A stretch of DNA of 64,000 nucleotides from Promethearchaeota archaeon (GTDB lineage: Archaea; Asgardarchaeota; Lokiarchaeia; Sigyniarchaeales; SOKP01), in contig RDOA01000010.1 in assembly GCA_011364925.1 (NCBI GenBank), forward strand, positions 44,216-108,215. The letters run 5' to 3'. The stretch's first letter is position 1, and each line of letters starts with the position of its first letter. The translations under genes were made by a program, and so were the position numbers. The notes beneath the pieces were generated by a model that was not told the origin of the DNA, searched no databases, and saw only the letters and a program-made list of their open reading frames with translations. Positions 23,812 through 32,939 of the stretch are shown here, one piece after another.

Positions 23812-24621
23812 TTACTTCACTTTTAAAAACTTTTTTGACGAAAATCGAATTCCTATAGATAAGAAGAATAATGCAAAAATCACAGTCAATGGTAAGAATC
23901 CCAATACAATATAAGCAAAAGCTGGTTCTGTCGAATAGAAAAACAATGCGATAGTAGCCCCTAAATGTATGATGGAGAATGCGATCGATAAATTTCTGTT
24001 AGTGGATAAAAATCCGAAAAGAAGATTGGGAAAAAGGAATAAGATTACGATATTAACCGTGGATAATAGAATTAATGCTGGGAAAAAGCGTGAAAATAAT
24101 TGATTAAGGTTGAAATACTGAGTTAAATTGAAAGCGGCGTAAATAAATAGGGTTACGTTGATACTTAAGAAAACTAAAAGAATGGTCAAAGGGACATTAA
24201 TTAGCCAAGATAGGATATTTCTAAAGATTGGAGAATGGATTGTTTTCGTTCTTAAAACATCTTGAATAATTTTTTCCATTTCTTCCTGAAGAATTTTTTC
24301 ATGATCGTAATCGGGTGAATATGAATCGATAAATTCCTGTAAAATTTCCTTTAAAATTTTTGTAACGAGTTCGTCGTTATCTCTCGTACTTACGATCGCA
24401 ACTCCAAGCACTCTTTCGTCCTCGTTAGGCACCAAAATAAGCTTATTATTTTCACCAAGATTAACATATTTTACTGCCGTACCTAACGCTTCTCTGCTGA
24501 AATTTGCGATTGAAGTGAAAAATCCGATTAATAAATTATCATCGTAATGTTCTTCCCTTGAAAAATCTTTAGAATATAATAAAATCCCGCTTTCATCCAA
24601 AATATAAAGATTTTTTAACAT
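23812..24621 (-). CDS. Longin-like domain fused to about 4 TM helices
   Basis: MLKNLYILDESGILLYSKDF...LLIGFFTSIANFSRE...ILKEILQEFIDSY longin/sedlin-like pattern; hydrophobic C-terminal half. Confidence 0.75.
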   Translation of the reverse strand: MLKNLYILDESGILLYSKDFSREEHYDDNLLIGFFTSIANFSREALGTAVKYVNLGENNKLILVPNEDERVLGVAIVSTRDNDELVTKILKEILQEFIDSYSPDYDHEKILQEEMEKIIQDVLRTKTIHSPIFRNILSWLINVPLTILLVFLSINVTLFIYAAFNLTQYFNLNQLFSRFFPALILLSTVNIVILFLFPNLLFGFLSTNRNLSIAFSIIHLGATIALFFYSTEPAFAYIVLGFLPLTVIFALFFLSIGIRFSSKKFLKVK

Positions 24622-24655
24622 TTTTTTATTCCATCCTTCTTTCGAACATTAAATA

Positions 24656-26362
24656 CTATTTATTCTCAATAAATTCCATATATTCTCCTATAGTGGCAGT
24701 CGATCTTTTAAAGCTATACAAACTTGAACCAAGGAGTTCGGTAATTTGAATAACTATTCCGGGAATATTTTCTTTGATAAAAATCTTGAACTTTTCATTT
24801 TTTCTTTCTTCGATAATTTTCACGATTTCCTTCATTTGTTTTAAGTTCTGAATCGACAACTCATCTGGATTGTTTAATTCGACATTCAGAATTTCACCAT
24901 ATTGAGGCAGACTTTCAATGTAATCTTTAAAAGAACCTATTTTTGAAGTAGATTTTGTAATTGTTAGAATCTGATCACAATTTGATACAATTTCCTGAGG
25001 ACCATGGAAAAGTAAGACTAAGTGAAAATTCTCTTTTATTTTATCCATATAGGAGTTAAATTTCTCATATTCTAATTTTCCCAAAATCCCGAAAGGAATA
25101 GAAAACATAATAATTGTAGGTGACTGAATTAAGGCTTGTGTAATTGAAAACATGAGAAATTCTAAGGGCGTTAACTTCGAGAATCTTTTGTTTTTCTTAT
25201 ATAATAATCCCGTCGATTCTAAAACTTTTTTTCTAAATTGTTTTTTCCAGCGAAAACCATGGGATTTTTCTTTTAGAAATTCTCCCATAATGTCATCTAA
25301 ACTCTGATTTAATCCTGCATCCCTTAAAATTGAATTAAAATCACTTTTTTCTTTCTTATATGTCTCTTTTAAATACTTTTTGTACTTGAGTGCTTTTTTG
25401 ATTCTCATTTTTGCTATTGATGAATCGTAAGCTTGAGGTAAGATGAAAATCCTCGCTTTTTCTCGTTTAGATAGTAATATCATTGGATTCCCAAAAATGT
25501 CGATTAATCCTGCTGATGTTGTTTGATTTCCAGCTATCGTGTCAAATAAATTCATAAGATCTAACCTAGGATCGACTTTTTCAAAGCCTTTTTCATCAAA
25601 AATTATTCCTATCGACTTCCCTCTATGAATCTTAAGAGACAAATTGTCAATAATATCACCCACAGAAACGCGTTCGAGAACCAAATATTGAGAATTCTTT
25701 TTTAATTCTTTTATTTTAAGGCGTATGGGCACTAAGTCGCATATTTTTTCGATAATTTCATACGCATGGGGGTGGTGGTTGACATCCCAATCCTTGATGA
25801 TTTCTTGTTCGCTAAATTCTCTTTCAGAAATAATTTTGGAAAGAGATTTCGAAAATGAGAATGTTGGAAGCATTGGATATTTTTCTAAGTTAACATTTAG
25901 CTTAATAACGAAATCCGGAAAATAAATTCTAATCTCTCGAAAATAAGGATTTGTTTGAATTTGATAATTCTCAAATCTATCATCAATCAGCTTAACCTCG
26001 GAATCTAAAAGTTGTAAGTGCTTCTGAAATTCTACTCGAATAAATCTCCTCATTCTTTGGAGTATTTTTACCAAATTTACCGTGCCGTCCTCTTCAATAT
26101 CTGGAGTATATATTATCTCACTAAAATCAATTTCATTTTCGATTGGAGTGTAAATTTTTAGTAATGGGACTCCCTTATTAATAACGTCGCTATTTGTAAA
26201 AAATAGGACTTCTATGAAAGATTTTTTGTAAATCAAATTAATAATTGAGGCAATTCCAAAAGTATTTTCTCGAAACGTCATCCAAAAACGCTTAGAAAAG
26301 CGAATCGCCTTGAGAATTTTTTCTCGCAAACGTTCCAATTCTTCTTCTCTAGAGTTCTCCAA
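24656..26362 (-). CDS. UBC/RWD-like domain fused to a degenerate ABC ATPase
   Basis: KYPMLPTFSF...DWD...YEIIEKI; ABC fold with Walker A, signature and Walker B substituted (LTPLE, FSIP); TTG start 7 nt after GAGGTG. Confidence 0.7.
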   Translation of the reverse strand: MENSREEELERLREKILKAIRFSKRFWMTFRENTFGIASIINLIYKKSFIEVLFFTNSDVINKGVPLLKIYTPIENEIDFSEIIYTPDIEEDGTVNLVKILQRMRRFIRVEFQKHLQLLDSEVKLIDDRFENYQIQTNPYFREIRIYFPDFVIKLNVNLEKYPMLPTFSFSKSLSKIISEREFSEQEIIKDWDVNHHPHAYEIIEKICDLVPIRLKIKELKKNSQYLVLERVSVGDIIDNLSLKIHRGKSIGIIFDEKGFEKVDPRLDLMNLFDTIAGNQTTSAGLIDIFGNPMILLSKREKARIFILPQAYDSSIAKMRIKKALKYKKYLKETYKKEKSDFNSILRDAGLNQSLDDIMGEFLKEKSHGFRWKKQFRKKVLESTGLLYKKNKRFSKLTPLEFLMFSITQALIQSPTIIMFSIPFGILGKLEYEKFNSYMDKIKENFHLVLLFHGPQEIVSNCDQILTITKSTSKIGSFKDYIESLPQYGEILNVELNNPDELSIQNLKQMKEIVKIIEERKNEKFKIFIKENIPGIVIQITELLGSSLYSFKRSTATIGEYMEFIENK

Positions 26363-31783: not shown

Positions 31784-31787
31784 TTTG

Positions 31788-32939
31788 TCACACCTCCAAT
31801 TTTTTAAATTTATACGAGACATACGCTGCGAATAAGAAAATCATAGAAATTAAGAGAAGAGAAAGTACGTGCTCCAAATTTAAACTTAAGCCTCTCAACG
31901 TAACATCAGTAATTAAAATAGATGCATGACTTAAAGGAAAGAGGTCTGCAAGGAATCGCGCTCCACCTAACGATTCTGCTGGTAGAAGCGTCCCTGAAAA
32001 TATAATCATGACAATAAACATCATCAAATACATTTGATTAGCTCCTTGTTCCGTTGGACTAATTGCCGAGATAAATAGACCAATTGCAACCCCGCTAAGT
32101 CCTATCATGAGTAAAATTAGGTAAAACGAAAAAAGAGATCCTAAACTGTATAATCCAAAAAATGCCGTCATTACAAATATTTCTGTAGATTGCAATATCA
32201 TAATTACCGTATTTGCAATTAATTTACTAAAGAGAATATCTCTCTTTGATGTAGGTGTAATAAGCATTCTTGGAAGTGGTCCTTCAGCTACTATTGATAA
32301 AGATGTTAGGTTCATTGTTGTGCCCACAATAATAATTGGTAAAATTAAAGAAAGAGAATAATTAAGCAGTTGGGATTCCCAGGAAGGGACTCCAAATTCG
32401 AGATGTGGAACCATAATAGTAAAATTTTCTAACATACCTGTTGCTACTCTAAAAAGAGAAATTGGTTCTTGAAGAGACACCTCAATCGCACTCACAGCAG
32501 TTCGATCAGAACCGTCAATATAATAAATCAAAACAGGATTGGAGTTATTTGCAATTGACTCTGAGAAATTCTGAGGAAGCACAATAAATACATCTATGAG
32601 GTCGTTTTTCAAAAGTGTAAGACAACGATTAATTGCGTGATTATACTCTTCACTGTTCGTAGCATTAAAGGAGCGATAAAGGTCCCAAGTTGTCGTGTTA
32701 TATTTAATTATTGAAATAAATACTTCATCATACTCAGATGAGTTTGATGGGAAATTCTCGTAGGTAGGCATCTCATCTTGACTAATAATAGCAGCGGTAA
32801 AAAATTTAGTTGGACCCACACCTGTAGTAAGTCCAAAGATAACAATTAATATCATAGGAATTACAAACAATAGAATTAGAGTTCTTCGATCAGATCTAAT
32901 CCTATTAAATTCTTTTTGGATTAATCCAGATAAAGTCAT
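31788..32939 (-). CDS. ABC-2 permease with extracellular domain
   Basis: QKEFNRIRSDRR, RMLITP, FSGTLLP, FPLSHA. Confidence 0.92.
   Translation of the reverse strand: MTLSGLIQKEFNRIRSDRRTLILLFVIPMILIVIFGLTTGVGPTKFFTAAIISQDEMPTYENFPSNSSEYDEVFISIIKYNTTTWDLYRSFNATNSEEYNHAINRCLTLLKNDLIDVFIVLPQNFSESIANNSNPVLIYYIDGSDRTAVSAIEVSLQEPISLFRVATGMLENFTIMVPHLEFGVPSWESQLLNYSLSLILPIIIVGTTMNLTSLSIVAEGPLPRMLITPTSKRDILFSKLIANTVIMILQSTEIFVMTAFFGLYSLGSLFSFYLILLMIGLSGVAIGLFISAISPTEQGANQMYLMMFIVMIIFSGTLLPAESLGGARFLADLFPLSHASILITDVTLRGLSLNLEHVLSLLLISMIFLFAAYVSYKFKKLEV

Follow-up and report, generated by a model that had tools for sequence, protein, structure and literature searches.

The stretch of DNA analysed here (the window) comprises 64,000 nt of contig RDOA01000010.1 from a Promethearchaeota archaeon. 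Between positions 23812 and 32939, its minus strand encodes a six-gene operon, g1 to g6, for a membrane machine of the ATP-binding cassette (ABC) type, in which two permeases are accompanied by three proteins of the nucleotide-binding domain (NBD) fold. The initial annotation, made from the letters alone, described six overlapping or closely spaced genes on this strand, and that layout holds, with gaps of 30-34 nt or overlaps once the true frame of g4 is used. The genes g1 (31788..32939, 383 amino acids (aa)) and g2 (30572..31822) are paralogues encoding permeases A and B of the ABC-2 (type V) kind; g1 has one transmembrane (TM) helix, an extracellular domain and five further TM helices. They are followed by g3 (29528..30541), a soluble, intact DrrA-like ATPase with a C-terminal regulatory domain, R3 (approximately residues 226-312), and by g4 (26349..29540, about 1063 aa), which consists of a TM anchor, two alpha6/alpha6 barrels, a second TM helix, an intact ATPase and a regulatory domain, R4. 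The fifth gene, g5 (24656..26362, 568 aa, with a TTG start behind GAGGTG), encodes two RWD/E2-like domains, a dead ABC ATPase and a regulatory domain, R5. The last, g6 (23812..24621), encodes a longin-like domain (approximately residues 1-125) and four TM helices.

Conservation of the neighbourhood across Asgard genomes had been proposed as a check, and the six genes proved syntenic in 26 loci: g1-g6 occur in order in 24 of 39 loci and in two further ones, and contig ends interrupt most of the others. Gene order and content are retained at identities down to 21-38%, so the operon is not a chance arrangement. Permeases and ATPases are encoded by separate genes in all loci, and in a tree the ATPase domains of g3, g4 and g5 form three separate clades (support 99-100). 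Full matches to the g4 ectodomain are found in 86 of 400 genomes of the phylum, made up of 76 of the 135 in the family, three in the rest of the order, six in other orders of the class and one outside the class; three genomes with weak partial matches (G103, G115, G370) were excluded from this orthologue count. All 76 g4-positive genomes of the family carry g5, and two further genomes (81% and 89% complete) have g5 with no g4 ectodomain match. As related genomes are not independent, this co-occurrence shows inheritance as a unit, not co-evolution. Three single-contig genomes of family f2 gave no match. One family, f6, has a rearranged gene order, with g5 divergent from g3 and the homologues of g6 located at other sites. 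Two loci have other genes inserted after g4, yet g5 and g6 remain adjacent (L049, L054), and two have no g6 at the locus (L041, L043), the g5 of L041 also lacking the RWD part.

Permeases, working ATPases and a double barrel

ABC transporters normally have two membrane domains and two NBDs. The two permeases were recognised from the outset as bearing ectodomains, and both score above the gathering score of Pfam ABC2_membrane_3 (g1, E 2.7e-22; g2, E 9.6e-26) and show the hydropathy pattern of TM1, ectodomain and five TM helices. The only sequence match of the g1 permease in the PDB is the insect transporter ABCH-9C (E 4e-13). The true start of g2 probably lies downstream of the listed ATG, either at TTG 31741 or at ATA 31783, where the last part of g1 supplies a preceding GAGGTG.

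The first ATPase, g3, is the normal ATPase it was taken for: it passes Pfam ABC_tran (E 2.6e-25) and has every catalytic motif intact. Its best NCBIfam match is drrA, below cut-off, and all NCBIfam scores of the operon proteins are far below equivalog cut-offs. The C-terminal part of g4 (ATPase and R4, 26376..27308, which would be cytoplasmic) also passes ABC_tran; its ATPase is intact and the dimer face of R4 has turned polar. Close structural matches of the ATPase together with its regulatory domain include NosF. No variation is seen across 30 homologues of g3 and 35 of g4 in Walker A, Q-loop, signature, Walker B, D-loop or H-loop, and the two proteins thus supply the standard two NBDs for two permeases. 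The suggestion that the NBDs are swappable does not fit this pattern: no homologue of either g3 or g4 has lost any part of its ATP machinery, as one would expect of a single fixed heterodimer. In its core the operon reads as an exporter of the ABC-2/type V kind, built from a permease pair and two intact ATPases, with export itself predicted from sequence.

The g4 protein had been described as a receptor-like fusion of ectodomain, TM helix and ATPase. The TM helix and the C-terminal ATPase stand, but this is not a simple receptor: a second anchor had been missed and the ectodomain is a prenyltransferase toroid. The reading frame is open for 69 codons upstream of the first TTG (from 29555) and encodes a basic stretch followed by a signal-anchor helix (29430..29510, hydropathy 2.69) that is present in all complete homologues, so that the ectodomain is anchored at both ends. 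We infer that translation starts at a non-canonical ATA at 29540, behind GGTGGT. In 16 of 34 complete homologues, the window copy included, no ATG, GTG or TTG precedes the anchor helix, with the consequence that databases often truncate the protein; most of the homologues without a canonical start have a Shine-Dalgarno (SD)-like motif just ahead of an ATA/ATC/ATT-type codon. A crude genome-wide test found no clear enrichment of ATA/ATT initiation behind SD motifs.

The ectodomain (27483..29417) contains 12 prenyltransferase/squalene-cyclase repeats (Pfam Prenyltrans, E 4e-29), and in the AlphaFold2 (AF2) model (predicted local distance difference test, pLDDT, 86.6) it is all-helical, with the same count of 12 repeats. 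The model matches the beta subunit of GGTase-I (1n4p_B) with a VIA Z of 27.0 and a root-mean-square deviation (rmsd) of 2.8 over 285 aligned residues. As this one chain aligns across model residues 43-686, repeats 1 and 8-12 would form one barrel and repeats 2-7 a second barrel inserted into it. In this modelled layout the first, proximal barrel would adjoin both TM helices. It is more conserved than the distal one (0.55 versus 0.45) and contains S567, D663, D670, R672 and N673, which do not vary among 32 homologues with identities as low as 35%. Protein prenyltransferases carry zinc ligands, D-x-C and H, in the last two repeats of their barrel; in g4 these ligands occur in none of the 12 repeat consensuses: repeats 6/7 read SDF/TIE, repeats 11/12 read SxF/DLRN, and the alignment pairs DVC with DVQ. 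The DxDD of class II terpene cyclases is likewise absent from all of them. The simplest reading of these sequences is that the barrel has a binding rather than a catalytic role.

Basic residues before TM1 and after TM2, together with the cytoplasmic ATPase, would place the barrel outside the cell. N-glycosylation sequons were considered as proof of this topology and rejected: they number 2.3 per 100 residues in the ectodomain and 1.0 in the cytoplasmic part, both about 1.7-1.9 times the expectation from composition. The window encodes a second, much larger membrane-anchored prenyltransferase-toroid protein (9163-13575, minus strand, 1470 aa, Pfam E 8.7e-8).

A dead ATPase and its predicted place in the motor

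The description of g5 as a dead ATPase with a UBC/RWD-like part is borne out. Its AF2 model (pLDDT 85.8) shows the fold of an ABC ATPase, matching 4yer_B (VIA Z 19.1, rmsd 3.4, 260 aligned residues), while Walker A, signature and Walker B are gone in 35 of 35 homologues and the H-loop is not conserved. An ATP site could therefore not be complete in any NBD pair that includes g5. Among the folded parts of the protein, conservation is lowest in the Q-loop/docking region (0.42), and the invariant C-terminal residues P486, R520 and E523 fall in R5. A database protein of 568 aa (P0203) is identical to g5.

Searched against 1.84 billion proteins, a profile of the N-terminal part picks up tandem-repeat proteins of Asgard type. 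Among 77 of them, UQ_con is present in 19 and RWD in 16; matches also carry BRE and FANCL domains, and in P0269 RWD/UQ_con overlaps the matched stretch. This part of g5 has an RWD/UEV-type YPxxP motif and invariant P163 and W192. No conserved catalytic Cys or HPN was seen in its N-terminal 215 residues. On this evidence the assignment as an RWD/UEV pseudo-E2 is strong for the second unit and weaker for the first. Fold searches with whole g5 returned only ABC domains, and an ESM feature match to UFC1 (score 0.77) is a lead only. Between the two units lies an EF-hand-like Dx[DN]xDG loop (26066..26101, minus strand), degenerate at position 3 in the window copy. The loop occurs singly in 106 of 120 close homologues, with K, R or I at position 12 in all 106; none of these is a canonical EF-hand with E at that position, which is found in the g5 of L037. 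Binding of Ca2+ by this loop is at most a lead from sequence. The second unit of g5 also has relatives in proteins of 570-690 aa that are built of about four RWD/E2-like repeats in tandem (P0269, P0270, P0273, P0281), and the window's own genome encodes a probable four-repeat protein of this kind (G000:C81:85337-87130).

We predicted the complex of g3 with residues 738-1060 of g4 and 220-568 of g5, alongside three controls. It scored 0.75 against 0.45 for the best control, with a contact agreement between runs of at least 89% and a partner pLDDT of at least 74. Of 80 solved pairs 58 attain this score mark, as do 2 of 110 mismatched ones; these figures apply only roughly to g3+g4+g5. In the model, g5 and g3 are joined by a pair of strands, 548-553 in R5 (24662..24931, minus strand) and 294-299 in g3, with the helices beside them packed together. 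Other surfaces of g5, including the invariant R520 and E523 within R520-E523, would touch g4 at sites among which are the invariant R977, Q1041 and G802. None of the Walker A or signature residues of g3 and g4 is in the listed interface.

Two checks that rest on sequence are independent of the complex model. At the equivalent dimer-face positions, hydrophobic residues are found in 100/93% of R3, 100/65% of R5 and 53/19% of R4. The second check is a sister system (genus g18) whose ATPases branch beside g3 and g4 (support 95 and 96). With the window g5 as query, no g5 was found in its three 94-100% complete genomes, and it keeps M/I plus L on the regulatory-domain face. The sister locus (L072:1175-11210; also L073, L074) has two permeases, a g3-like ATPase and a soluble g4-like ATPase with an uncharacterised N-terminal domain of 235 aa. 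No barrel, g5 or g6 is present at it, and it adjoins a 1629-aa membrane-anchored subtilase with a DUF4350/ABC_transp_aux domain.

We think it reasonably probable that g3, g4 and g5 form a three-subunit motor. The ATPases are probably not swappable, and g5 would be a latch or brake: it lacks both halves of the composite ATP site, and the model docks it at the regulatory domains and not inside the ATP sandwich. Of the two roles first offered for an accessory NBD, swappable or regulatory, the second thus suits g5 better, its motif loss and modelled docking making a regulatory or structural function most likely. Such a latch has a parallel in the ABCA transporters, where regulatory domains latch the NBDs (PMC8815970).

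The annotation of g6 as a longin-4TM protein stood in part. The four TM helices are there, and the longin-like N-terminus is suggested by sub-threshold Pfam hits (Sybindin, Intu_longin_1, Clat_adaptor_s) and by transitive ones, in that a g6 profile retrieves paralogues which themselves match Fuz_longin_1 (E 5e-5) and Longin (E 0.005). A PDB profile search with this domain gave no match, and the ESM Atlas clusters of g6 consist of Promethearchaeota proteins without names. In more distant lineages g6 is unlinked or missing (L031, L032, L041, L042, L043). The proposed link to small-GTPase signalling derives from the longin fold and found little echo in the loci: GTPase-like open reading frames (ORFs) occur in 4 of 39, none of them inside the operon.

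The g3 mini-intron and other observations at the locus

In 10 related genomes of several genera, the invariant D-loop of g3 is split by an insert of 31-34 nt with tRNA-type bulge-helix-bulge ends (L008/L039, L014/L080, L016/L026, L018/L028, L050, L075-L079). The window carries the empty allele, with the site at 30038..30039 (minus strand). Cutting by the archaeal rule would restore the D-loop motif exactly in 10 of 10, so the intron-bearing copies are probably not pseudogenes. The intron helices show compensatory changes, with one central mismatch in two of the ten. Several intron-bearing loci have foreign ORFs or a partial g3 duplicate upstream, possibly remnants of homing endonucleases. Among them are a 764-aa ORF with two CxxCH motifs (L075:8564-10855) and an ORF near the g3 intron (L039:5757-6584); the CxxCH-motif ORFs in these two loci gave no Pfam HNH hit. 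A homing endonuclease as an obligate companion of the intron is ruled out by its absence from L076 and L077. A 30-nt insert (22438-22467, minus strand) also interrupts an FAD-linked oxidase gene just downstream of the operon, and its removal joins ORFs of 383 and 101 aa into one open frame of about 494 aa.

A gene for a 174-aa protein with a CxxC zinc-ribbon-like N-terminus and a weak CpXC match (33089-33613, minus strand) adjoins the operon in 16 loci, lying upstream in most and directly after g6 in L047, L051, L052 and L056. It is possibly a seventh, loosely linked operon gene. Further away, the window encodes an 872-aa protein that joins a 12TM_1 membrane domain to an Rce1-like CAAX protease (60770-64000, minus strand), directly after an ABC ATPase gene, and a second Rce1-like gene (36789-37511). 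A scan of the window for sigma-70 promoters gave hits at chance level with a consensus that does not fit archaea.

The sole operon outside the class (genome G136) nests within Lokiarchaeia in trees, and a separate fragment with 85% identity is in a Candidatus Hodarchaeota record (L066/L067); this may reflect transfer between Asgard classes or mis-binning. The short g5 of G136 was rejected as the ancestral state, as the ATPases of this genome nest inside the class beside L035, which leaves loss, transfer or a mis-binned contig. An apparent g6 match in G136 proved to be a non-homologous protein matching itself. An apparent g4-g5 fusion in L056 was rejected as evidence of interaction, as it spans an assembly gap of 100 N and the end of the ATPase is missing.

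Mechanism, alternatives and meaning

The core resembles exporters already known. DrrAB, YbhFSR/RbbA-YhhJ, NodIJ and Thermotoga TM_1403 (4yer) share the two paralogous ABC2_membrane_3 permeases with ectodomains, and exporters of the DrrAB/YbhFSR/NodIJ/TM_1403 type share ATPases with a C-terminal regulatory domain. Unlike DrrA-type exporters, the operon has two different ATPases, one of them tethered through the membrane to a 640-aa barrel ectodomain, and adds a third, dead ATPase with RWD-like domains and a longin-4TM gene. Insect ABCH (Tribolium ABCH-9C, 8yzp/8z01/9ju6) and human ABCA1/3/4/7 share the type V fold with an ectodomain after TM1, ABCH-9C being the only solved sequence match of the permease. 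Human ABCA also shares the latching of NBDs by regulatory domains (PMC8815970), and its top rank for g3 is inflated by summing two ABCA NBDs. These are single-chain half or full transporters, whereas the operon parts are separate genes, and the likeness is not a tree-based ancestry. NosDFY and GldAFG have an ABC-2-type core, a regulatory domain on the ATPase and a large extracellular partner; they differ in that here the outer partner is fused to the ATPase and has another fold, and the motor would be a heterodimer with a pseudo-ATPase.

The g4 barrel shares its alpha6/alpha6 fold and QxxDGGF-type repeats (profile E 2e-25) with the beta subunits of GGTase-I/II and FTase and with class II terpene cyclases, the last of which also have two barrels, one inserted in the other, the layout predicted for g4. 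In contrast to these enzymes, the g4 barrel would be extracellular, is doubly anchored and fused to an ABC ATPase, and has neither zinc ligands nor DxDD; no prenyltransferase alpha subunit is present at the operon locus. BRE/BABAM2, FANCL and Asgard tandem RWD proteins resemble g5 in the YPxxP motif, the conserved W and the lack of a catalytic Cys, but g5 is fused to a dead ABC ATPase and carries the Dx[DN]xDG loop, and there are no ubiquitin-system genes in the locus. No paper describing the operon was found in the literature searched, whose coverage left most subscription journals outside. Within that literature the initial view of an undescribed membrane machine holds, for a machine that is conserved and has three subunits of the NBD fold. 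Transporters like the core are already known; the gene combination and the latch by a third subunit, the latter predicted from the model, appear new there.

Our favoured reading, for which we judge the evidence to be evenly balanced, is an ATP-driven type V exporter whose cargo would be a membrane lipid or a molecule with an isoprenoid tail, and whose cytoplasmic motor would have three subunits. The two permeases would form a heterodimeric translocation path, and g3 and the g4 ATPase the only working ATP sandwich. The two TM helices of g4 would hold the double barrel beside the permease ectodomains, where its non-catalytic prenyl-type cavity could accept or present cargo. Unable to bind or hydrolyse ATP, g5 would dock under the motor, replace the regulatory domain of g4 as partner of that of g3, and act as a latch or brake passing on signals from its RWD/E2-like domains and possibly Ca2+ through the Dx[DN]xDG loop; g6 would be a looser membrane adaptor. 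Lipid or isoprenoid export, already raised in the initial annotation, is plausible by analogy, as the permease's sole solved sequence relative, ABCH-9C, was solved with ceramide (PDB 9ju6 title) and the barrel comes from an isoprenoid-binding fold.

Several points weigh against this picture. The complex was predicted without the permeases, the RWD domains and the membrane, and its high score may owe something to solved regulatory-domain dimers that the predictor had learned. Position 1024 of R4 is hydrophobic in about half of the homologues, the window copy included. The interface is less conserved than the background in g3 (0.52 versus 0.60) and g4 (0.64 versus 0.70), and only slightly more conserved than the background in g5 (0.56 versus 0.51). 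The sister-system control is one lineage with three near-identical genomes. No lipid-synthesis gene is consistently adjacent at the loci surveyed.

The machine might instead be a mechanotransducer that uses its ATP cycle to move the barrel, held by its two anchors, or a surface protein bound to the barrel; nothing would then cross the membrane, and g5 would still be the latch. NosDFY, FtsEX and GldAFG offer analogues, NosF is a close structural match of the ATPase and regulatory domain, and the barrel is covalently joined through a TM helix to an active ATPase. The subtilase with DUF4350/ABC_transp_aux that takes the place of the barrel in the sister system suggests that the core may serve different outer partners. 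As the permeases match ABCH and not NosY by sequence, and the barrel comes from an isoprenoid-binding fold with conserved polar residues in its membrane-proximal part, we regard this as improbable, though a serious contender. Those polar residues could also belong to an active surface enzyme with new chemistry, for example adding or modifying isoprenoid anchors on surface proteins or lipids, with the ABC core delivering the enzyme's substrate. The invariance of S567, D663, D670, R672 and N673, the greater conservation of the proximal barrel and the cyclase-like insertion layout would fit such an enzyme. It nonetheless seems unlikely, with neither D-x-C...H zinc ligands nor DxDD in any of the 12 repeats, and with invariant residues that adjoin the second TM helix and may be structural or interface residues.

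Other explanations turn on g5. Three interchangeable NBDs could serve one permease pair, with the longin protein relaying small-GTPase signals that switch them; there are indeed three NBD-fold subunits for two permeases, and the g5-g6 adjacency that survives insertions after g4 is in line with this. In eukaryotes as in Asgard archaea, small GTPases are partners of longin domains (PMC10933270). However, a sandwich containing g5 would lack a complete ATP site, the docking region of g5 is its least conserved folded part, the regulatory domains are where the complex model sets g5, the loci show no consistent linkage to a GTPase gene and g6 is itself unlinked or missing in five loci of distant lineages, all of which makes switching very unlikely. 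We give as little credence to g5, with g6, as an assembly or quality-control factor that sits transiently on unassembled ATPases and is absent from the working pump. The g3-g5 pair alone is plausible, as it still scores 0.45 with an unrelated protein in place of g4, and RWD/UEV domains are typical adaptor modules. Yet the score reaches 0.75 only with g4, whose invariant R977, Q1041 and G802 meet R520 and E523 of g5 in a second interface, and with the R4 dimer face lost, R3 would have no partner once the pump is mature.

The exporter with a three-subunit motor can be extended further, to an obligate trimer in which the dead third NBD replaces a lost latch partner and couples pumping to E2-like and longin inputs (a ubiquitin-like modifier, Ca2+ or a small GTPase), while the barrel receives an isoprenoid. 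We offer this whole chain, inputs included, only tentatively, as possible rather than probable. If true, a pseudo-ATPase third subunit acting through a regulatory-domain latch would be a new mode of ABC transporter control, and the obligate trimer would be a new ABC architecture and give three eukaryote-signature folds a concrete non-eukaryotic job. By analogy, the cargo may be an Asgard surface lipid. The RWD/E2-like, longin and prenyltransferase-beta folds, all linked to eukaryotic trafficking, occur together in one Asgard machine, which bears on the roles these folds had before eukaryotes.

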